A DNA stretch of 64,000 nt from Candidatus Binatia bacterium. Lineage in GTDB: Bacteria; Vulcanimicrobiota; Vulcanimicrobiia; Vulcanimicrobiales; Vulcanimicrobiaceae. The notes under the pieces are model-generated. The model had not been told where the DNA came from. It saw nothing but the letters and a program-made list of their open reading frames with translations, and did not search any database. Location: NCBI GenBank assembly GCA_035544215.1, contig DATKHY010000003.1:697878-761877 (forward strand), in the 5' to 3' direction. Shown here one piece after another: positions 2,951 to 18,358 of the stretch. Within the stretch, counting starts at the first letter, position 1. The number at the start of each line of letters is the position of its first letter. The position numbers were made by a program, and so were the translations under genes.

Positions 2951-2992
2951 AGAGAGGTGGCAGAGCGATTGAATGCGGCGGTATTGAAATGC
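2951..2992 (+). repeat. tRNA-Ser-like 5-prime-half fragment, copy 1 (not a functional tRNA)
   Basis: AGAGAGGTGGCAGAGCGATTGAATGCGGCGGTATTGAAATGC has a type-II tRNA acceptor 5-prime strand, a D-arm (GCA-GAGCGATTGAA-TGC) and a TTGAAA anticodon-loop-like end. No anticodon 3-prime stem, T-arm or acceptor 3-prime strand follows. Confidence 0.5.
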
Positions 2993-3066
2993 CACTGGAT
3001 CGCTATCAGCGCCAGTCAGCGATAGTTTGCGCTAAGGTAAAATAAGGAGTTCTCGCTCAGCGACGA

Positions 3067-3456
3067 TCACGCGAATCTGGCTCGCTGCAACCAAACTGCA
3101 ACCAAAAATCGTCGCTCGGCGGTAGCGCCCCACACGTACGGGCCGTAATTATGCGGGTTGCAGGACCCATCGTCGCTCCCGAAGTGGTACTTAGGTGGAA
3201 GATCGACGTTTGGGGCGCTATTAAGCTGCCAGCTGAGTAGCGATGAAAGCTCGCCGCGGAATTCCCGTCGCCGTAAACGGCAAACCGGCGCGTCGTCGTA
3301 AAGCGGCAATCATATGGTCGAGCCCGTGGCGCTGGGCATGAGCCCGCCGCCAGTCTGCTGCCCGCTGCAGGCGGCGACGCCCGCCGCCAGGGCGAGTGCC
3401 AGCGCCGAGCGCCGGCAGACTGTAGATTGAAACTAAGGCGAGGCGCGCCGCGTCAT
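3067..3456 (-). pseudogene. Possible decayed lipoprotein gene with two in-frame stops
   Basis: A single minus-strand frame runs from ATG 3456: MTRRASP-TAG(3435-3433)-FQSTVCRRSALALALAAGVAACSGQQTGG...STI-TGA(3312-3310)-LPLYDD...PKYHFGSDDGSCNPHNYGPYVWG. It has a lipobox-like LAAGVAAC and is interrupted twice. Confidence 0.3.
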
Positions 3457-3599
3457 GGGGCGGTCTACAAAACTGCTCGCTAGCTGATTGCGCGGGGAGT
3501 GTAAGGCGCGCGGCGGCGCCCCAACTCGCAGGGCCCAGCGCCACAAAGATGCGATTCGAAGCTGGTCGATGCCTTAATCGGCACCGAGCCGACTCGAAC

Positions 3600-4568
3600 C
3601 TACTTCGTTGTCGTCTGACCCCTCAAGAAAGCTACGAGTCCCGTGATCAGCGAAAAGAGTGCACCAAGAGCACCGCCGATACTTGCGATTACTGCTTTGA
3701 CGTCGTCTATCGTCTTAGCCTGTTTGAGGTTTATCCCAAGAACAGGGGAGGACTGGTCAGCGGTGCCACCATCCGTTTTGGCCGATATTTTGGAAACGAG
3801 TAACGTGTGGACGACCGCCGCCGGAAGCGTGGATGGTGAAATCTCGACTAAGAAACGCCAGCTGTAATTCTTACCTCCATCCTGTGTGACTGCGGCGGAT
3901 TCTGGTCGTGGAGTGACCCAGGCGATGGGATCCATTGTAACTTTCGGCGGATCTTTTGCTGGCTTATCGCAACTAACCGATACGTCGTAGGTTGCGGCAC
4001 TGCCCGGCGTCAAAGTGTCCAGACCACTAAGCACCGCGCTGCACTGCATCGGCGTCGGAACTGGCGTAGGCGTGGGAGCTGGCGTAGCCGGCGATACGGC
4101 TGATCCTGAAAGCGTCGGCATTGGCGCTGGGGCTGGAGGAATACTCGGCATCAGGGAGACCCAGGTGTAATCACCATCGATGGTTCGGGATGGCGTTTCG
4201 TGGAGAGCAAGCGCCATCGCGAAGAGTCCGACCGCCAAGAGAAATGAATAGCCGGGCCTCCACAATGGATCGCCTGTGGGCGCCGGATCCGGCGACTTGA
4301 CACTAACTGAGGCATCGGAACCTGCTGGGCCACGTGGCGGCTCTTTCACGTTCATCAGCTCGCGAGTGCGCGCAAGGTCGCTAAATATCTGGAAGACGCC
4401 AACGTTAAAGATGATGAGCGCTAAAACTGCGAGGGCCTGGCTGATATTTATGTGAATATCCCTAGCGGAAAGCACCAAATAAAATACAACCAGAAGTATC
4501 TCTGCTACCAGCAGACCTCCGATTGACAACCACTTTTGCTGCCTCGGAGTAGGGCTAAAGTCGGCCAC
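3600..4568 (-). CDS. Hypothetical membrane protein (N- and C-terminal TM helices, Pro/Thr-rich linker)
   Basis: 322-aa ORF with GTG start 4568 and GGGAGG 8 nt upstream. TM helices include LSIGGLLVAEILLVVFYLVL and ALAVLALIIFNVGVFQIF, with a C-terminal AVIASIGGALGALFSLITGLVAF. The linker is PAPTPTPVPTP. Confidence 0.6.
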   Translation of the reverse strand: MADFSPTPRQQKWLSIGGLLVAEILLVVFYLVLSARDIHINISQALAVLALIIFNVGVFQIFSDLARTRELMNVKEPPRGPAGSDASVSVKSPDPAPTGDPLWRPGYSFLLAVGLFAMALALHETPSRTIDGDYTWVSLMPSIPPAPAPMPTLSGSAVSPATPAPTPTPVPTPMQCSAVLSGLDTLTPGSAATYDVSVSCDKPAKDPPKVTMDPIAWVTPRPESAAVTQDGGKNYSWRFLVEISPSTLPAAVVHTLLVSKISAKTDGGTADQSSPVLGINLKQAKTIDDVKAVIASIGGALGALFSLITGLVAFLRGQTTTK

Positions 4569-5235
4569 GGCGTTCGACCTCCCGCTATGAAGATTCGACG
4601 CGACGCTAGCGGGCCCTTGGCTCCCTCCTCATCGTCGAAAACGGGACTCAAAAGAAGCAGAGTTCTAAAGCATTTTCCGCGGGCGCGGGTGCCGCTGGCG
4701 GAGGATGTACCTCGCGTCGGCGGTGCAACCCCCATTGGATCTACTTGCACCTGTACACCCCTCTCATGGCGGTAGCGAGAGAGATGTCTCGCGGACAAAG
4801 GCGGAAGTTCTCGCCGAGCCCCCGGACGAACTCCTGACAGGTTTGATTTCCAAGCGCGGCGCGGCTGGTACCGTCAGGGAGGCTTAACTTTACACGTCAA
4901 AGTGCCGAAGCGATGTCGCCGATCGGGACCTCGGCGCGTCCGGTTGGTACCGACCGGTCGCAATCCAATCTGGAGCATGGAGTTCAAGCGCGAGCAGCGA
5001 CGCGGCGATCAGCCATGAAAGTTTTCGGCTCCAGATTATTGTCGACATCTTCACGCGGGAGCGCCTCGCGCTCGAGGGTCCTTCCGGCTTTCGAGCACGC
5101 CCGCTGGACTACGGCCGCGAGCAAGCCCAGTTTGCATCCACTTAGCATTATGTGAGAAACCGACGGTGGCGACGTGACGTCGCGAGAAACGCGGCTACGC
5201 AAAGACTCAATAGCCATCATGGTTTGCGAGGACTT

Positions 5236-5278
5236 GGAGGGGTGGGCAGAGCGGTTGAATGCGGCGGTCTTGAAATGC
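5236..5278 (+). repeat. tRNA-Ser-like 5-prime-half fragment, copy 2
   Basis: GGAGGGGTGGGCAGAGCGGTTGAATGCGGCGGTCTTGAAATGC aligns to copy 1 with about 38 of 42 positions identical and one 1-nt gap (by eye). It ends at the same point just after the CTTGAAA (anticodon TGA) loop. No tRNA 3-prime half follows. Confidence 0.5.
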
Positions 5279-5333
5279 TTACAACAAGCCTCGACAAGTC
5301 CTCATAAATCCCATTTGACCGAGGCGGCGCTTC

Positions 5334-5357
5334 GGCGCCTGGGCGGCGTCTTTTTTT
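5334..5357 (+). terminator. Intrinsic-terminator-like hairpin plus T7 run downstream of tRNA-like copy 2
   Basis: GGCGCC-TGGGC-GGCGTC forms a 6-bp stem with one G-U pair (5334-5350). It is followed immediately by TTTTTTT (5351-5357). Confidence 0.45.
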
Positions 5358-5443
5358 CGAATTGTTAGGTTTTCTTCGTCGAAGAGGCGACGCACGCGCA
5401 TATGCTTGATCATCCAGCTCTTGCGGCGGCTCGTGGTCTCAGA

Positions 5444-8182
5444 TCAATTCGGACGCCCGGATTTACGGCTCGTTTGAACGCGTTCACGGTAGAGGAGCGC
5501 TTGCTCCTGCTTGCGCTGGTAGCGACCGACCTTCGCCAAGTTGCTAAGGATGATCGCCATTTTGGGATGACTGGGCCCCAGCTCCCGCTCGATGACGATC
5601 AACGCCCGCTCAAGGAGTGGCAGCGCCTCCGCGTATTGCCCTTGGCGTATATGAAGCGTAGCTAGATTGTTAAGGCTGACGCCTACTTCGGGGCTCTCCT
5701 CACCCAGTGCCGCCTTATTGATTGCTAATGCGCGGGTGAGCAAGGGAAGTGCCTTCGCATATCGTTTCTGGCGCTCGTAAAGCGTCGCAAGATTATTGAG
5801 ACTAATCGCTACGCCGGGATCTTCAGGGCCCAGCTCCTTTTCCTTTATTGCCAAGGCGCGCTTCAGCAACGGTAACGCCGTGGAATACTGGCGTCGTTTT
5901 ATATAAACTTCTGCGATGTTATTTAGGTTGGCGGCGACCTCAGTGACATCAAGACCTAGCCTCCGCTCGTTAATCGCCAGCGCGCGTTTCCACATGGGAA
6001 GCGCCTTGGCAAATCGCTGTTGGTCGTAATATACCAGAGCCAAATCGTTCAGGCTCTGCGCCACATCGACATGCTGAGCTCCAAGGGCCTGCTCCCGGAT
6101 TGCGAGCGCGCGTTCAAAGAGGAGCAGCGCCTTCGCATATTCTGCTCGTTCACGGTACAGCAACGCAAGATTGTTAAGGCTCCGTCCGATGTCGGGAAAA
6201 TTCGGTTCCGGCGCGCGTTCGCGAATCGCCAACGCTTGCTTATAAATAGGCAGCGCCTCGGCGTAGCGACTTCGTTGGGCCAAATATTCTCCCACCTTAT
6301 TGAAGACGCCCGCTGCCGAGTCCGTCGCCGTCTCTTTGTCTACAAAACGAGCGACCGCTTCGACGTGTTCGACTAACCTGTCACACGCATTCCAACTCTT
6401 AAAGTCTACATTTGGAAAGGTGGCAGCCAGGGCACTCACTGCGCGCCCTGTCAAGACGATCCGCTCATCCCCAGGCAGTGCGTTCAAAACAACCTCCTGT
6501 ACCATCCGATGAATACTGAAAGTGCGACTTTGACGATCGACGCTAATTAAAGAATACTGCGCCAACGGTCGAAGTAACTCGCCGACAAGCAGGTCATCCT
6601 GGTGATCCGGAAGCGCGCCTTTAATATTCTCTCCCAACACGCTCGCGCCGCGTTGGAGCAGTTCGAACGGAATAGCTGTTGGATCCCAAAACGCGCTTAC
6701 CCGGAGCACGTCTCCGGACGCGGGCCAAGAATCCTCGACTACTTTAAAGTTACTGCTCCACGTGATCGCGAGAGCCGCGTGAGCTTCTGGTCGTGCTTTT
6801 GCCAAAAGCTTTATGCCTTGTTTTTGGAGTCCATTGAGGTACGAGGAAAAAGCAGCATCGGTCGCAACGATATATGCGGCGGCTTGCTCAAGAGCGAGTG
6901 GAAAGAACGCTAAGGTTCGCGCGATCTTTTCAGCAGCGGCGCTCTCAGCGGTCGACGGCAGATTCCGGCCCGTTCTGCAAGTCAGAAAGTTAATGGCTTC
7001 TTGCGGTGAAAAGTCTGATACACGCAGTGAGCGCACGATGCCAAGCTTCTGGAGAACGGGATTGCGGGTCGTCGTCAAAATGTGGCCGTGAGGCGCGTTT
7101 GGGAGAAACGCGCGCACCAAGATCTCGTCATCAACGTTATCGAAGACCAGTAGCCATTCTCCTCCATCCCGCTCTAACGAGCCTCGAGCCGTTATTGCCG
7201 TCTCTTCCGAGCTTGGCGCCGCGATTAGCCCACGGAGCTTGGCAATCTGAACGAAGGCATCGATCAGCGTGCCGCGCGTTTCCGCATTTGCCCAGTAGAC
7301 GCCATCAGGATACTTCGCATGCTGGAGGTCTACGTAGCGAATAGCGCTTTGTGTTTTGCCAATTCCACCAACTCCAGACAGGGCTACGCAGCGTTGCGAC
7401 GTAAACTCCAATTCGATTTCCTTTACGAGGTCGTCCCGGCCTGTGAAATAGTGTGTTCGCAGGGCGTCGGGTACGTTAGGCGTAGCGGTTCGGCGTTGAG
7501 GCATTGGGACTTGGGTGCGCTCTAAGGAGCGAAACGTAAAATGCTTTGCAAGTTCCGGATATTTTGCAAACCAAGTCGATATCGGGACGACGTAGGCTTC
7601 CCTAGCGTGGTCTTCCGTTTCAGCTCGAGAGAAATGTGTTAGTCCGATAACGGCGCTCTCCACGCTTTCCAGAACGACGGGAGAGCCGCTTATACCCGGC
7701 TGGGTGTCGCCGATATCAATGAGGCGCCAGGCGTGCGGAATCTCCGCTAAAAACGCGCCAATTTGCATCCCGATCGGCGTTGGGTGGGCCAGTCTAGCGT
7801 TGAAGCGTTGAGACCCGCCTACGGGCCGAGTCACGCCTACAACAGGTGCGCGTAGGCGAAACAGCGCTGGCGACGCAGCCTCCGGAGCTTCGACTGTGTC
7901 ATGTTCGCTGGTTAATTCCAGCACGGCCACATCACGACCAGGATCGGAGCGCTCAACGCACAGTCTAGCAGTCGCTGTGCTCAACGGCTGATCGTTAGCG
8001 GAGAAGAACGTGACCGGGACCGCCCTCCGGTCCACAGCCTCCAGGATGACATGGTAGCAAGTCAACACGATCAGCGCTTTTTCAACTGGGACACAAAGCC
8101 CCTGGCCAATACGATTACCATGAGCATCACAGACGCGCACGGTTGCCTGAGAGATCAGATCCAGTCCGGAGAGCGTGCGCAT
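5444..8182 (-). CDS. STAND NTPase: N-terminal trypsin-like serine protease + NB-ARC ATPase + C-terminal TPR array
   Basis: 912 aa. Protease triad context: CYHV, GRDVAVLEL, GDTQPGISGSPVV. NB-ARC motifs: Walker A GVGGIGKTQSA, Walker B LLVFDNVDD, TTRN, and GLPLAL-like FFPLALEQAAAYI. There are about 8 KLC-type TPR units (ALPLLERALAI.E..LG..HP.VA.SLNNLA.LY). Confidence 0.9.
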   Translation of the reverse strand: MRTLSGLDLISQATVRVCDAHGNRIGQGLCVPVEKALIVLTCYHVILEAVDRRAVPVTFFSANDQPLSTATARLCVERSDPGRDVAVLELTSEHDTVEAPEAASPALFRLRAPVVGVTRPVGGSQRFNARLAHPTPIGMQIGAFLAEIPHAWRLIDIGDTQPGISGSPVVLESVESAVIGLTHFSRAETEDHAREAYVVPISTWFAKYPELAKHFTFRSLERTQVPMPQRRTATPNVPDALRTHYFTGRDDLVKEIELEFTSQRCVALSGVGGIGKTQSAIRYVDLQHAKYPDGVYWANAETRGTLIDAFVQIAKLRGLIAAPSSEETAITARGSLERDGGEWLLVFDNVDDEILVRAFLPNAPHGHILTTTRNPVLQKLGIVRSLRVSDFSPQEAINFLTCRTGRNLPSTAESAAAEKIARTLAFFPLALEQAAAYIVATDAAFSSYLNGLQKQGIKLLAKARPEAHAALAITWSSNFKVVEDSWPASGDVLRVSAFWDPTAIPFELLQRGASVLGENIKGALPDHQDDLLVGELLRPLAQYSLISVDRQSRTFSIHRMVQEVVLNALPGDERIVLTGRAVSALAATFPNVDFKSWNACDRLVEHVEAVARFVDKETATDSAAGVFNKVGEYLAQRSRYAEALPIYKQALAIRERAPEPNFPDIGRSLNNLALLYRERAEYAKALLLFERALAIREQALGAQHVDVAQSLNDLALVYYDQQRFAKALPMWKRALAINERRLGLDVTEVAANLNNIAEVYIKRRQYSTALPLLKRALAIKEKELGPEDPGVAISLNNLATLYERQKRYAKALPLLTRALAINKAALGEESPEVGVSLNNLATLHIRQGQYAEALPLLERALIVIERELGPSHPKMAIILSNLAKVGRYQRKQEQALLYRERVQTSRKSGRPN

Positions 8183-8191
8183 AGCGGCCGG

Positions 8192-8593
8192 TTAGGCTTT
8201 TTCGGCGAACTTCCAAGTTGCTGTAATTTTGAGACCCGCCGTCGATGTTGACTCGCCGGTAAGAAGAACGGGAACGATTGTCGCCCGCCCCTTCAATTCA
8301 AAGCCGAATGAAATTTCGAGTTCAAGCTCGCACGGCCTCAGGGTCTTGGCAGCATCGTGGACCTTCAATCCGATGACTCGGACGCCTTCGTTAACTACGC
8401 GAGCAGCCTCGTCAAAAACATTCGTGGCCGTCACCGCGCGGATGTGTGACTCGTTTGTTACAGGAAGGGCCTGGCCGCTGACGCGAAAGTAAACTATCGC
8501 GCTGCCGATCTGCTGAGCGATTAGGTTGGGCTGTGCAGCTGTAGGCTGGGTCTGCTCCCGTTCACCGCCAACCGCCGTTCGAATCTTACCCAT
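8192..8593 (-). CDS. Trypco2-like (CU044_2847-type) small protein, partner of the trypsin-STAND gene
   Basis: ORF track gives 8192..8617; ATG 8593 has GGAGG 10 nt upstream. The stop is 9 nt before the STAND start. The C-terminus ELELEISFGFELKGRATIVPVLLTGESTSTAGLKITATWKF matches my memory of the trypsin-co-occurring domain 2 pattern. Confidence 0.7.
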   Translation of the reverse strand: MGKIRTAVGGEREQTQPTAAQPNLIAQQIGSAIVYFRVSGQALPVTNESHIRAVTATNVFDEAARVVNEGVRVIGLKVHDAAKTLRPCELELEISFGFELKGRATIVPVLLTGESTSTAGLKITATWKFAEKA

Positions 8594-9010
8594 AGTGACT
8601 ATGCCTCCGAGTATCAAGGTTTGACTTCGTCAATGTTACAGCCGCGGCGAAGGATCCACAATCCGGTGAGTTGCCGTTAGGCGCAGTTTCGGGAAACCTC
8701 ATTCGGCATGGGATGTCTTCACCGCTTTGGCCGAAGTCAACTCAACAGCGACACAGGTCGCGAAGCGAGACCACGCGGCCAGCACCAACGTGCCCGCGAA
8801 GCAGTGGGACGAGATGGCCTCCGAGCAAGCCGCAATCCATCGCACCCTCGTCGCTTTACATCTGAGTCCGATCGAACCCGCAGGCGTGCTTGATGACCGG
8901 CTAACTGTCCAGGACTGCACGGAATTGGGGGTAAGAAGGATTGTCGATCGAGGGCGGAGCGCGGTAATATGAACCGGAGCCCCGACCTTGGGGCCCCGGA
9001 GGTCCGTGGT

Positions 9011-13045: not shown

Positions 13046-14695
13046 ATGCTTCGTCGTTTGCTCGCTGTGTTGGCGCTCGCGGCAATCCTCGCTACGCTCT
13101 TTTCTCCTAGGCGGGCGGACGCGGGATGGGTCTGGGACGGGCATACTTGGACGGTCGCGATCGTGTCCGCGATTGGAGCCGCTGCAGCTGGATACTTTCT
13201 TGCGTACGAGTCCGCCATGCTCCGTTCAAAAGGCAGTGTCAAACAGGGTGAGACTGTAATGCGCTTGACGCTTTTTGGCTCGCCCAAAAGCATCGCGCCT
13301 ACCCCCGATCCGCGACAACTAACCCTACAAGCCTTGCGCGGAATCGTCATGGCTGATATTGCCTACGAGCTTACTGCCCCTAACATCAATCCCGTAACGC
13401 AGATTCATTGGCGCACAAAATTCGAAACGCTGCGGAGTTGTTGGAATACGGCGCTAGTCACGCCGCCGACCCCCGTGCCAAGCCCCTCCGCTTCGCCCAC
13501 GAGCTCATCGACGAGCTCCCCCAGCCCAACACCTAAGCAATCAAAGAAACAGAGCTCGTCCAAAAAACCGAAGGGACAGAAAACGGCCGGCCCTGGCACC
13601 AACCAAACTACCTACACGGGGCTGAGGCTCGTCGTCGCGTACGACCCCACGCGTCTTGGGACAGACACCGGGCTAGCGACCGGCCAGGTCGGCTACGCCG
13701 GATCGCCAGCTCCGTCTCATCACCCTTCCTCTCAACATCCGAAGAAAAAGCGCACCCCGACGACAAAACCTAGCCATTCCCCAAGCCCGTCGCCATCGCC
13801 ATCGCCGTCGCCGTCGCCGTCGCCGAGTCCCTCGGCGACGCCGGCCAAGCCAACCTGTAACGACCTCTTTAACGATGTTATGGATTCGTACAGCGGCGAC
13901 ATCAAAAAAGCCAATGTGCTAGTTGCTTCGTACTCTCGCCCAGCACCCGGCTCCGGCAAGAGTTCGCCAAGCCCCTCGCCTCTGAGTTCGGCCGATGCGG
14001 AGGCACTCGCGTTTCGGCTTCAGACGCAAATCGACACCACGGACCTCGCAGCTTACCTCTCGACGTCACCAAGTCTGCTGTCCCAGGTCGTCAATCAAAA
14101 TGTCGGCTCGTACGTCACCGACGACTATGTGCGCAATCTGTTTCTGGCAACGGCGGCCATTAAATTCATTAATACGCTTCCCACGCCGACGCCCACGCCA
14201 ACGCCGACTCCAAGGCCGGGAACGAAGAATATAAGCCTTCCACCGATCCTTTCGCTGCTCCAGCCGGTGGCTTCGGACTGCCCTGGCGTCAACGCTATTA
14301 CTTCGGGTTTAAAGTGCTTGAACGATGTGAGCTCCATCGAAGTCGCCTTCGCAAACGCGCATATCCAGCGCGAAGCGTGCTACTGGAGCAAACACGTAAT
14401 CATGCCAACCTACAGCGACATCGAGCTTTGGGCGCAGCGGCGGGGGCCTTACGAGGAAACCGGTGCGGCCATTCTGGGAAGGAGTGCTGGCAGCACGCCG
14501 CCGCCGACCCAGGCGCTGATCACAGTCAACCTCGGCGACTTCCCAGGCAGCCTTAACAGCATCGATCCGGGCAGCGTGTACATCAACGGCCTGTTCACGG
14601 GAGGATCATACGAGCCGACGTCTTTGCAGGCCGTGGATGCAATGAACGCCATCAACGCTGATATGACCGTTCTCACGATGCCATCGGGTTGCTGA
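13046..14695 (+). CDS. Secreted/membrane-anchored Ser/Pro/Thr-rich protein
   Basis: 549 aa. The signal MLRRLLAVLALAAILATLF is followed by a second hydrophobic helix (VAIVSAIGAAAAGYFLAY). It has long SPSPSP and PTPTPT linkers and a folded C-terminal part. No known domain recognised. Confidence 0.7.
   Translation: MLRRLLAVLALAAILATLFSPRRADAGWVWDGHTWTVAIVSAIGAAAAGYFLAYESAMLRSKGSVKQGETVMRLTLFGSPKSIAPTPDPRQLTLQALRGIVMADIAYELTAPNINPVTQIHWRTKFETLRSCWNTALVTPPTPVPSPSASPTSSSTSSPSPTPKQSKKQSSSKKPKGQKTAGPGTNQTTYTGLRLVVAYDPTRLGTDTGLATGQVGYAGSPAPSHHPSSQHPKKKRTPTTKPSHSPSPSPSPSPSPSPSPSPSATPAKPTCNDLFNDVMDSYSGDIKKANVLVASYSRPAPGSGKSSPSPSPLSSADAEALAFRLQTQIDTTDLAAYLSTSPSLLSQVVNQNVGSYVTDDYVRNLFLATAAIKFINTLPTPTPTPTPTPRPGTKNISLPPILSLLQPVASDCPGVNAITSGLKCLNDVSSIEVAFANAHIQREACYWSKHVIMPTYSDIELWAQRRGPYEETGAAILGRSAGSTPPPTQALITVNLGDFPGSLNSIDPGSVYINGLFTGGSYEPTSLQAVDAMNAINADMTVLTMPSGC
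13777..13834 (+). repeat. In-frame hexanucleotide (TCGCCN)n microsatellite encoding (SP)n
   Basis: ccaagcccgtcgccatcgccatcgccgtcgccgtcgccgtcgccgagtccctcg encodes SPSPSPSPSPSPSPSPSPS. A second (ACGCCN)n tract encoding PTPTPTPTP lies at 14183-14212. Confidence 0.7.
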
Positions 14696-15626: not shown

Positions 15627-16250
15627 GTGATCTACGGCATCGATGTCTCCGGATGGCAAGAGAACATCAACTGGCAGCGAGTGCCAAACTCGCAGATTAA
15701 GTTCGTTTTCGCCAAGGCCACCGAAAGCACGGACTACTACAGTAATCAGTTCCATCAGCAGCATGACGGCGCCAAGCAGTTGGGGATACCGTTTGGAGCC
15801 TATCACTATCTCGACGTTCGGGTCGACGGCGGGCAGCAGGCGGAATACTTTTTGCAGGCGATCGACGGGTATCAGGGACAGCTACTACCCGCACTCGATA
15901 TTGAGGAAACCCACGGTATGTCTGCGGACGGCGTCGTCAATTGCCTCGCGGCATTCTTGAAGGTGGTCGACGCGACGCTGCAAGGCAGGAAAAGTTTGTT
16001 TTACACGTTTTTCTCATTCTGGAACGACACCATGTCGGGGCGCGACGACTTCTCCGGTCATCCGCTGTGGATCGCGCAGTACCCCATCAGGTACACGGAA
16101 GCGATGCAGCCGGCAATTCCTAAGGGCTGGAAGAGCGCTGCAATTTGGCAGTACGCGGATACAGGCGACGTTGCGGGCATCACCGGCATTACCAAGAGTC
16201 CCGACATGGACCGCCTGGTCGGCGACGATCTTTCGCTAATTTCTAGATAG
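15627..16250 (+). CDS. Glycoside hydrolase family 25 lysozyme (muramidase)
   Basis: IYGIDVSGWQENINWQRV...FVFAKATESTDY...GIPFGAYHYL...LPALDIEE are the classic GH25 motifs (GIDVS..Q, KATEG-like, GAYH, D-x-E). There is no signal peptide (endolysin-like). Confidence 0.9.
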   Translation: MIYGIDVSGWQENINWQRVPNSQIKFVFAKATESTDYYSNQFHQQHDGAKQLGIPFGAYHYLDVRVDGGQQAEYFLQAIDGYQGQLLPALDIEETHGMSADGVVNCLAAFLKVVDATLQGRKSLFYTFFSFWNDTMSGRDDFSGHPLWIAQYPIRYTEAMQPAIPKGWKSAAIWQYADTGDVAGITGITKSPDMDRLVGDDLSLISR

Positions 16251-16579: not shown

Positions 16580-18358
16580 CTATTGCGGCGCGTGGCTGCT
16601 CAGATCGTGTTGCATCTGGGTGGCCAGTGGCGCGAGCGCGCGAATTTGCGGGAGCGTGGTCGATTCGAGGCGCTTGATCAGATCGTCATCGAAGATGGCA
16701 CGCGCGTCATCTAGACGCCCGAGATTGAAGAGCGCCATGCCCTTATTGTATTGCGCGGCCGGAGCCAGGTCGCGCTCTTGCGGGCTCGTAGCCGCTTCGA
16801 GGCGAGCGACTAGGTCGTCATCGAAGATCTTCAGCGCGTCGTCGAAGCGGCCGAGATCGAGGAGTGCGAGCCCCCTGTTGTACTCGGCGGCCACAGCGAG
16901 GTCATGCACTTGCGGGACGGTGGCCGCCTCGAGGCGCTTGATCAGATCGTCGTTGAAGATGGCGAGCGCATCGTCAAAACGCCCGAGATTGAGTAGTGCC
17001 ACGCCTTTGTTGTAGAGTGCGGCCGGCGCGAGCTCGCGCACTTCTCGGCGAGTTGACGCTTCGAGGCTCTTGACCAGATCGTCATCGAAGATCGCGAGCG
17101 CGTCCGCGTAACGCCCGACGTACAGCAGCGTGAGGCCCCTGCTGTAGGCCGCGGCGGGAGCGAGCTCGCGCACCTGCGGGAGCTGGGATGCTGCGAGATG
17201 CTTGATCAGATCGTCGTCGAGGATGGCGAGAGCGTCGCTATAACGTCCAAGAGAAAGTAGCGCCGATCCCCTGAAGTAGAGCGCCGCCCAGGCGTACTCA
17301 CGCACTTGCGGGTTCGAATCGCCTTCGAGACGCTTGACCAGATCATCGTTAAACGTGTCGAGTGCCGCGGCGAGTTGCCCGAGCATCATGAGCGCTAGGC
17401 CTTTGTTGTAAACGGCGAGCGCTACCCACTGAAGCACATCGGAGTCAGTCGAGGACCCGAACCGGCTAAGCATTGCATCGGACGCCGCCAGCGCCTTTTC
17501 CGGCTGGGTTAATTGATAGTACACGGCGCTTTCGTTCAATAAAGCCTGGGCCACCTGTTTTTGCGTCGCTTCGGGATCGCGAACGACTGCATCAAAACAT
17601 TCTGCTGCCAGGTTGAGATCCTGAGCGGCGTACGCGGCCAGCCCTCGATCGAGCCAATCCTTGGCCGTGTACGTGCTCTTGGGCGTACTCTCTAGTTTCT
17701 TTTCACGGGCCTGGACGGCACGCGCTTCTTCCTCCGAAAGACTCGCCTGCTTCCCCTTATCGAGCGCGTTCTGCAGCTTGGCGAATCCTTTGTCCCATAA
17801 GTCACTCGCGTGGCCGAGTTGAATGTCGGCGCGAGCGATTAGGCCTGAAAGGTATAGCCGAGTGATGAGGAAACCGCTGGTGAATCCCAATATCGGGAAG
17901 TAGATCGTGACCGCTAGCGCCGCGGCGGCGCTCGACGAATGATACGCCGGGCTGGTGGCCCCGACGAACTGCGATATCGCCGACGGTATCTTATACAGCT
18001 CCACCAACCCCAGGCCGACGATGATCTTGGTGAGCCAGTCGGAAATCTGTTCGAGGTTTGTGTTAGGGGTGAGTAACGGATGTTGCTGAGCGCCGTCGGC
18101 TGCGGCGGACGCTACCTTCGGAATGCCAAAGAGAAAGCCGACCAGCAGGCCCGCGATGAAAAGGCCGCCGGCGATGAACGCCGGGAGCTGCCAATATCCC
18201 CAGCCTTGGCTCAGCGCCAGCAGCAACATCCCCGCTAAGAGCGCGACCAAAATGCCTTTAGCGATGGCTTGAGATGCTTCTGCTAGCTCAACCACCTCGC
18301 GTTCCCGCGCGAGGCGCTGCTCGTCCGATGGCGTCGTCGTGGGAGGCCCGTCACTCAT
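16580..18358 (-). CDS. 4-TM N-terminal domain protein with TPR-like 44-aa tandem repeats
   Basis: 592 aa. TM helices lie around aa 35-55, 58-80, 108-122 and 143-168. There are one or two TPR-like units, then about 7 units of exactly 44 aa (LGRFDDALAIFDDDLIKRLEAAT.PQVRELAPAA.YN.GLALL.). Confidence 0.85.
   Translation of the reverse strand: MSDGPPTTTPSDEQRLAREREVVELAEASQAIAKGILVALLAGMLLLALSQGWGYWQLPAFIAGGLFIAGLLVGFLFGIPKVASAAADGAQQHPLLTPNTNLEQISDWLTKIIVGLGLVELYKIPSAISQFVGATSPAYHSSSAAAALAVTIYFPILGFTSGFLITRLYLSGLIARADIQLGHASDLWDKGFAKLQNALDKGKQASLSEEEARAVQAREKKLESTPKSTYTAKDWLDRGLAAYAAQDLNLAAECFDAVVRDPEATQKQVAQALLNESAVYYQLTQPEKALAASDAMLSRFGSSTDSDVLQWVALAVYNKGLALMMLGQLAAALDTFNDDLVKRLEGDSNPQVREYAWAALYFRGSALLSLGRYSDALAILDDDLIKHLAASQLPQVRELAPAAAYSRGLTLLYVGRYADALAIFDDDLVKSLEASTRREVRELAPAALYNKGVALLNLGRFDDALAIFNDDLIKRLEAATVPQVHDLAVAAEYNRGLALLDLGRFDDALKIFDDDLVARLEAATSPQERDLAPAAQYNKGMALFNLGRLDDARAIFDDDLIKRLESTTLPQIRALAPLATQMQHDLSSHAPQ
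16619..17515 (-). repeat. 132-bp tandem coding repeat (about 7 units)
   Basis: The motif GA(T/C)(C/T)AG(A/G)TCGTC(A/G)TCGAAGAT recurs at 16676, 16808, 16940, 17072 and 17204, with a degenerate copy at 17336. The spacing is exactly 132 nt. Confidence 0.8.

Follow-up and report, generated by a model that had tools for sequence, protein, structure and literature searches.

This work concerns a two-gene locus within the window, that is, the whole stretch of 64,000 nucleotides analysed (64 kb, contig DATKHY010000003.1 of a Candidatus Binatia bacterium). The locus comprises a gene for a 133-residue Trypco1/CU044_2847-family protein, followed on the same strand by a gene for a 912-residue protein in which a trypsin-like protease, an NB-ARC (AP-ATPase) module of the STAND type and an array of tetratricopeptide repeats (TPRs) are joined. 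This pair is a genuine and well-formed operon of the Trypco1 ('Pepco'-class) plus trypsin-NB-ARC-TPR kind, a class that is known and partly characterised (the name 'Pepco' reportedly goes back to Nicastro et al. 2023). With moderate confidence, it can be read as a two-gene immune module of the abortive-infection type, belonging to the 'protease-effector plus STAND sensor' class, in which the small protein would be at once the substrate of the protease and the effector of cell death.

The small gene occupies positions 8192-8593 on the minus strand and encodes 133 residues from its ATG; an alternative TTG start, eight codons upstream, would give a product of 141 residues. A GGAGG ribosome-binding site, read from the sequence, is found at 8604-8608 on the same strand, 10 nt before the ATG. 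The large gene (5444-8182, minus strand, 912 residues) begins after a 9-nt spacer, CCGGCCGCT, which extends from the TAA of the small gene to the ATG of the large one (8183-8191). An earlier note on this DNA had described the two open reading frames (ORFs), their common strand, their 9-nt spacing and the ribosome-binding site, and all of these were reproduced from the sequence. The layout is that of an operon, with probable translational coupling of both genes. A promoter and terminator scan gave signals at chance level. In NCBI, identical proteins from a Candidatus Binatia bacterium metagenome-assembled genome (MAG) carry no annotation beyond 'CU044_2847 family protein' and 'tetratricopeptide repeat protein', respectively. 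Both genes share the same reading frame, with the TAA and three codons between them (8182-8194, minus strand), and stop-codon read-through of the small gene would yield a Trypco1-protease fusion; this frame relation is not kept in homologous loci, where gaps of 1-6 nt or overlaps occur, and is therefore probably coincidental.

The pairing of both genes was followed in nine non-redundant related loci, obtained from metagenomes (L001, L005, L006, L008, L012, L013 and L014) and from GTDB genomes, namely a Terriglobia MAG (L010) and a Niastella MAG (L011). The GTDB loci were recovered by scanning these genomes with a hand-made degenerate DNA pattern; an earlier scan of GTDB genomes for relatives had found nothing. 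A protease-domain homolog (32-55% identity) lies directly downstream of the Trypco1 homolog in all nine. This consistent linkage of the small gene to trypsin-STAND genes bears out the description of the pair as a two-gene conflict-type module given in the earlier note, together with the adjacency that it expected for homologs of the 133-residue protein. The downstream gene mostly starts 0-6 nt past the stop of the small gene, or overlaps it; in L014 the gene as called starts 113 nt past the stop, the match to the protease domain beginning about 14 nt past it. On the strength of these sequence comparisons, the Trypco1-protease pairing is not due to chance.

The module located after the pair changes from locus to locus. 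Thus, an NB-ARC module of the window type is present only in L006, L008 and L012, and an nSTAND3-type ATPase with TPRs takes the place of NB-ARC in L005, L010 and L011. In turn, the closest NB-ARC-TPR relatives of the large protein (45-49% identity) bear adenylate cyclase, TIR/SEFIR, HTH, GAF or LuxR heads, and among 92 matches a protease head was found in only one protein besides the entry of the window itself (P0014). Taking into account the strict linkage and the occurrence of the pair on at least two STAND types, Trypco1 and the protease behave as a portable cassette mounted on interchangeable STANDs. This, together with the variety of heads found on the NB-ARC-TPR chassis, matches the picture drawn by Evans et al. 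2025 (bioRxiv 10.1101/2025.11.14.688446), in which a protease-effector module has been recombined with many sensors.

Peculiar gene structures were observed in two of these loci. In L014, two copies of the protease domain follow the Trypco1 gene (1137-1775 and 2963-3537), the second of which corresponds to the homolog fragment P0106, where Gln replaces the catalytic His. The downstream trypsin/STAND/TPR gene of the Terriglobia locus L010 (1189-4379) is broken into three ORFs. The extra copy and the split gene may be decaying or mis-assembled copies.

The small protein had been assigned to 'Trypco2 / CU044_2847', a label of which the second half has stood. The NCBIfam model CU044_2847_fam gives 24.6 bits (cut-off 23), and Pfam identifies residues 34-129 as Trypco1 (PF19493; 27.2 bits, threshold 24.6), the homologs reaching 30-41 bits with this model. 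No Trypco2 (PF19631) match was obtained from Pfam at E<=0.1, and the Trypco2 label was rejected. Out of 1.84 billion, a profile of close homologs retrieved 115 cluster representatives with E<=1e-3, of which 56 reached E<=1e-10, so that this branch of small proteins is not abundant. A search of the PDB with the sequence of the small protein returned nothing significant. Its predicted layout consists of a beta-hairpin (residues 23-38), a flexible linker, an amphipathic helix (59-85) and three strands (89-128). The amphipathic character of the helix is marked, with a moment of 2.1 over residues 57-75 against a shuffle maximum of 1.38+/-0.21, and the alternating E-x-E-x strand that follows it, ELELEISFGFELK, gives 3.0-3.2 against 2.3-2.6+/-0.4. 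An amphipathic helix combined with alternating strands is, as far as sequence features can indicate, compatible with a beta-barrel.

The N-terminal part of the large protein (residues 1-215; 7538-8182, minus strand) is, according to its profile match and motifs, a serine protease of the chymotrypsin fold. Pfam Trypsin_2 matches residues 31-180 with 33.0 bits, above the threshold of 27.6, and the motifs CYHV (42-45), GRDVAVLEL (82-90) and GDTQPGISGSPVV (158-170) supply a catalytic triad, H44/D84/S165, in the order His-Asp-Ser, as had been claimed from the sequence alone. The codons of the triad were checked in the sequence and correspond to positions 8051-8053, 7931-7933 and 7688-7690 of the minus strand, respectively. 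S165 corresponds to the first of the two Ser in GISGSP, a segment aligned with GDSGSP of complement factor D in a PDB match that is not itself significant; indeed, nothing significant was retrieved from the PDB with the profile of the protease domain. D84 is invariant among homologs, and the His and Ser positions are retained in full-length homologs. When the protease domain was used by itself as the query, just two proteins were recovered.

The central part of the large protein (residues 242-571; 6470-7459, minus strand) corresponds to a STAND nucleotide-binding oligomerisation module, which was delimited through NF040586, DUF7779 and the conserved motifs. All the motifs announced in the earlier note are present: Walker A GVGGIGKTQSA (270-280), Walker B LLVFDNVDD (344-352), TTRN (371-374) and the GLPL-like FFPLALEQAAAYI (426-438). 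Key residues are K276 in Walker A, D348 in Walker B, TTR at 371-373 and the MHD-like H558-R559, and in an alignment of 48 homologs G270, G273, G275, K276, D348-N349, T371, A434 and H558-R559 are invariant. A winged-helix/DUF7779 region is recognised by Pfam at residues 487-571 (DUF7779, E 7e-11). The Pfam NB-ARC model itself gives 17.7 bits, under its threshold of 23.5, and in this point the earlier assignment is not backed by Pfam. The assignment as an ATPase is maintained despite this score because the NCBIfam model NF040586 (FxSxx-COOH-system TPR protein, AP-ATPase-TPR family) matches residues 242-610 with 332 bits (cut-off 300), PF00931 is present in dozens of homologs of the large protein, and the structural model resembles Apaf-1. 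This AlphaFold2 model of residues 236-912, built on the 48-homolog alignment, has a mean predicted local distance difference test (pLDDT) value of 90.9 and a predicted template modelling score of 0.81. Among the STAND structures of the PDB, it comes closest to ADP-bound Apaf-1 (1z6t; E 5.5e-11, with about 530 columns aligned), and its top 50 Foldseek matches there include neither an Avs nor a NACHT structure. Taking profiles and predicted fold together, the large protein is best placed among the STAND NTPases, in the AP-ATPase/NB-ARC clade.

The C-terminal part (residues 572-907; 5462-6469, minus strand) is an array of eight TPR units of the kinesin-light-chain (KLC) type, in agreement with the count of about eight given in the earlier note. 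Pfam TPR_12 (E 8e-59), TPR_10 (E 1e-58) and, also strongly, TPR_NPHP3 are matched over residues 600-900 approximately, and the model displays 16 helices over residues 571-907, equivalent to eight TPR units, of which six keep a clean 42-residue register. A sequence search of the PDB relates this part to KLC1 (E 2.5e-42), and in Foldseek it superimposes on the KLC1 TPR domain with TM-scores up to 0.8 and 36-44% identity. The array is presumed to be the domain that senses a ligand. The possibility that its units had been recently amplified or were hypervariable was rejected, since Tandem Repeats Finder detected no DNA-level tandem repeat in the region. In PADLOC, the sole match of the large protein was a generic TPR model (E 4e-7), with no match to any Avs family, and its membership of Avs1-5 was rejected. 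The earlier view of a STAND-plus-repeat sensor is plausible, and its qualifier 'Avs/NLR-like' applies to architecture only, as no Avs type was recognised.

The families involved were first delimited by computation. Kaur et al. 2020 (eLife, PMC7159879) introduced Trypco1 and Trypco2 as families that adjoin trypsin-like domains in NTPase-based conflict systems and exclude each other there; theirs were predictions only, and no mechanism was offered for Trypco1. The Trypco1-trypsin pairs of that survey (vWA-MoxR/VMAP, STAND) contain the same family in the same position beside a trypsin-NTPase fusion; in contrast to them, the window pair has no vWA/MoxR genes in its vicinity, and it is a minimal, two-gene version built on an AP-ATPase-TPR protein. 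The statement that no experimental characterisation of this architecture existed is out of date, since Evans et al. 2025, who treat both Trypco1 and Trypco2 as 'Pepco', have characterised a sister pair from Streptomyces subrutilus, formed by the Trypco2 protein SsPepco and the trypsin-Avs4 protein SsAvs4. The toxicity of this pair is triggered by a phage portal and requires both Pepco and the catalytic Ser. Pepco was described as a beta-barrel pore toxin, constitutively nonameric/decameric and resistant to denaturation with sodium dodecyl sulfate. The protease cuts SsPepco after Ile97 (site ARI97|R98), with loss of a 2-kDa C-terminal tail; a fragment with Ile97 as its exact end is lethal, and the presence of an amphipathic helix at the N-terminus is required. 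A related MBL effector is also cut after Ile, and in each of the four protease-effector pairs tested the partner was both substrate and toxin.

In the light of this pair, the roles proposed in the earlier note have to be redistributed. Its claim that the protease is the effector is half right, as in the tested pair the protease acts as transducer, death being brought about by the small protein, and of the roles that it offered for the small protein (cofactor, substrate or inhibitor) only that of substrate fits.

The resemblance between the two systems is one of organisation. As in the window, SsPepco and SsAvs4 are encoded by a gene for about 120-130 residues placed immediately upstream of a trypsin-STAND-helical-repeat gene. 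In SsPepco as in the window protein, an amphipathic helix precedes an alternating strand (AELCLEVEFRK, compared with ELELEISFGFELK), after which come a G-K turn and two further strands, and a flexible segment of each protein contains Ile-Arg. As in the Pepco class of Evans et al. 2025, a small protein is thus encoded next to a sensor-fused protease, on which its activity would depend. The differences are also clear. SsPepco belongs to Trypco2 and the window protein to Trypco1; SsPepco is cut in a 20-residue C-terminal tail, whereas the window protein has 6 residues past its last strand and about 55 extra ones at its N-terminus, and it lacks the charged, proline-rich C-terminal tail, cut after a conserved Ile, that is part of the class as defined; finally, the sensor of SsAvs4 is of the Avs4 type and senses a phage portal, whereas that of the window combines an NB-ARC of the Apaf-1 type with TPRs of the KLC type. 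The NF040586 'FxsT'/cyclase-, TIR- and HTH-NB-ARC-TPR proteins share 45-49% identity with the window protein over NB-ARC/DUF7779, and the same 42-residue KLC-type TPRs, and differ from it in the swappable head, a place taken in the window protein by a trypsin-like protease to which a partner gene belongs. Apaf-1 itself (PDB 1z6t, 3sfz) has nucleotide-binding, winged-helix and helical domains, with Walker A/B, TTR, GLPL-like and MHD-like motifs, in common with the large protein; identity is 16%, the sensor of the window protein consists of TPRs and not of WD40 repeats, and its protease is fused and not recruited via CARD.

On this basis, the following sequence of events can be proposed. The 912-residue protein would be kept inactive in an ADP-bound, closed state similar to that of Apaf-1, until the KLC-type TPR array binds its ligand, most likely a protein or peptide of the invader. 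Nucleotide exchange and oligomerisation through NB-ARC would then bring the N-terminal trypsin-like domains together, and the activated protease would cut the co-translated 133-residue Trypco1 protein at a specific site. Through this cut the latent small protein would become a toxin active on membranes, probably in the form of a small, oligomeric beta-barrel with a collar of amphipathic helices, and the cell would be killed or arrested. Of the elements of this scheme, the gene structure, the domains and motifs, the Apaf-1-like fold, the KLC-like TPRs, the Trypco1-protease linkage and the shuffling of STANDs come from the present analysis. The phage trigger, the cleavage after Ile, the pre-formed beta-barrel and the toxicity are carried over from the Trypco2/Avs4 sister family, on the assumption that Trypco1 behaves like Trypco2, and the TPR array is the presumed sensor.

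Concerning the position of the cut, Trypco1-branch proteins carry about 55 additional N-terminal residues, which form the beta-hairpin and a low-confidence linker. At position 51, in the linker, an aliphatic residue is present in 51 of 60 family members (I32, L15, V4). Genomic context was checked for seven sequences, and in these the motif reads [IL]51-R52-x-V54, with R52 and V54 invariant. The pLDDT of AlphaFold around Ile51-Arg52 is about 37-41. As this Ile-Arg is conserved in the linker and offers the same P1 and P1' residues, it can be likened to the ARI|R site of SsPepco, and Ile51-Arg52 (codons at 8438-8443, minus strand) is a candidate cut site of the small protein. Cleavage after Ile51 would remove an N-terminal pro-segment and not a C-terminal tail; the activation site of Trypco1 probably differs from that of Trypco2. 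A second conserved [IV]-R is found at residues 4-5 of the small protein. It is conceivable, if somewhat doubtful, that Trypco1 represents a distinct branch of protease-licensed toxins, in which a hairpin pro-segment of about 50 N-terminal residues would be lost after Ile51, leaving a core of the helix and three strands that would assemble or insert as a pore, and that the NB-ARC/KLC-TPR sensor would respond to a new trigger.

Several results weigh against an immune module in which the small protein is the toxin. When the Trypco1 branch was compared with SsPepco by hhalign, the probability was below 1% with both 12- and 60-sequence profiles, the sole part aligned being the ELxLEVxF strand. The Pfam models do not cross-match either: SsPepco, whose sequence was taken from the supplement of the paper, scores 65.6 bits with Trypco2 and matches neither Trypco1 nor CU044_2847. 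Sequence homology of Trypco1 with the tested SsPepco is consequently not supported. No significant BLASTP match was obtained between the protease of the window and that of SsAvs4, and the AlphaFold model of the small protein as a monomer is poor (pLDDT 51). Among 60 Trypco1-branch sequences, between 2 and 54 residues follow the invariant Trp127 (median 9; 6 in the window, KFAEKA), and no conserved Ile is found in this tail. Since the length of the tail is variable and such an Ile is absent, the published rule of a cut in the C-terminal tail cannot be general for Trypco1; charged, Pro-rich tails are present in some of the homologs. With the patterns applied to the viral contigs of IMG/VR, no relatives were found. 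The PADLOC check proposed in the earlier note turned out negative, as neither gene of the pair was recognised as a known defence protein, and 10 neighbouring proteins gave no match to its defence models.

Some of these points would fit a different role for the small protein, that of a helper to the protease, be it as a pro-domain or chaperone acting in trans, as an inhibitor or antitoxin, or as an adaptor, with the protease killing by direct cleavage of host or phage proteins. Trypco1 has no detectable similarity to the tested Trypco2 and no consistent cleavable C-terminal tail, and a defence caspase that acts without a partner effector (Evans et al. 2025) makes direct proteolysis a real mode of action. 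We nevertheless consider this explanation unlikely. Trypco1 and the protease are strictly linked and move as a unit between STANDs, as occurs in the four tested pairs; the amphipathic helix and the strongly alternating strands are typical of membrane-active barrels; and the Ile-Arg conserved in the flexible linker consists of the known P1 and P1' residues.

A second alternative retains the architecture and changes its purpose, the pair being a non-immune module for signalling or regulated proteolysis, whose TPR array answers to an endogenous ligand in stress, development or peptide sensing. The cyclase, HTH, LuxR or GAF heads of the closest NB-ARC-TPR relatives are typical of signalling, and Kaur et al. 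2020 tie AP-ATPase-TPR proteins to the sensing of modified endogenous peptides. Moreover, no known defence genes (10 neighbours), no PADLOC match and no mobile-element hallmark are found beside the window copy; in particular, no integrase match was obtained among 20 neighbouring proteins scanned, and the window contains no tRNA gene. Against this alternative, TIR and SEFIR heads are borne by the same chassis, the sister module is experimentally antiviral (Evans et al. 2025), and the window copy is surrounded by ORFans in a stretch of lower GC, a conflict-system domain, pYEATS, being encoded 4.5 kb away. Related loci are, in addition, accompanied by protelomerase, integrase or T5orf172 genes, which hints at mobile or variable regions. 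Taken as a whole, a purely endogenous function seems quite unlikely to us, and the immune module, with the small protein as substrate and toxin, is the reading retained in what follows.

The regional context can be described as follows. The GC content of the first 16 kb of the window approximately, which include the pair, is 0.56-0.59, compared with 0.60-0.66 in most stretches from about 16 to 26 kb and from about 32 kb on, and these first 16 kb are occupied mostly by ORFs without a Pfam match. The segment looks like a variable genomic island. Pfam matches among the neighbours are limited to a pYEATS domain, a GH25 lysozyme and a BNR/sortilin-like protein. The pYEATS domain is found in a 136-residue protein (36.6 bits) encoded at 491-901 on the minus strand, 4.5 kb from the pair, and upstream of its ORF, and overlapping it, an ORF for a 218-residue protein without family match is located at 868-1524 on the same strand; it is possible that these two ORFs form a second small pair of the conflict type. 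The pYEATS domain is another one associated with conflict-system surveys; its name is absent from Kaur et al. 2020. Among the ORFans there is also a gene for a GH25 lysozyme/muramidase (15627-16250, plus strand; Pfam Glyco_hydro_25, E 1e-43), which could be a phage remnant or encode a secreted enzyme. Predicted proteins rich in Pro, Ser and Thr are encoded at 3600-4568 (minus strand) and 13046-14695 (plus strand), and a second TPR protein, of 592 residues, at 16580-18358 (minus strand), with TPRs at residues 277-560 approximately and about 270 N-terminal residues without family match.

As regards the related loci, a gene for a protelomerase of the ResT/TelK type (PF16684) is located directly upstream of the pair in L001-L004 (4409-5917), L008 (907-1983) and L009 (251-1327). 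A phage-type integrase is encoded 1.3 kb downstream of the pair in L005, and a T5orf172/MUG113 gene nearby in L006. It is possible that the cassette travels on elements resembling linear plasmids or prophages.

A last explanation, very improbable, takes the large protein for the TPR member of a peptide-modification system of the FxSxx-COOH type, as the NCBIfam 'equivalog' name of NF040586 (FxSxx_TPR, matched above its cut-off) implies, and was rejected as a system membership because that match is confined to the NB-ARC-TPR chassis (residue 242 onward), no CxxxCxxC radical-SAM motif exists in any frame of at least 250 residues across the 64-kb window, no Radical_SAM or SPASM match was found in the 20 neighbouring proteins scanned, and the FxS-linked AP-ATPase described, one of the AP-ATPase-TPR proteins with TIR heads reported in FxSxx peptide systems (Kaur et al. 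2020), has an N-terminal TIR and not a trypsin. In the absence of the radical-SAM motif, the name of the model can be taken to reflect the shared chassis. Only two frames of the window end in FxSxx, one of them, at 5156-5368 on the plus strand, being a 70-codon stop-to-stop frame that ends in FFSNC, convergent with the large gene and past its stop; without a radical-SAM partner in the window, these endings are read as fortuitous.

The window pair does not overturn the current understanding of these systems. If the immune reading is correct, it would extend the principle of protease-licensed death effectors on NLR-like sensors to an uncultured phylum (given as Binatota), as well as to the Trypco1 branch. 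From the comparison with related loci and with the tested pair, it can be concluded that Trypco1 and its protease behave as a portable cassette carried by at least two STAND chassis and that the published C-terminal-tail rule of activation does not carry over to Trypco1, and a concrete candidate cut site, Ile51-Arg52, is obtained. Taking into account that the same chassis also bears cyclase, TIR and HTH heads, the ligand of the Apaf-1-like NB-ARC/KLC-TPR protein would be informative for a large family of NLR-like proteins in bacteria.

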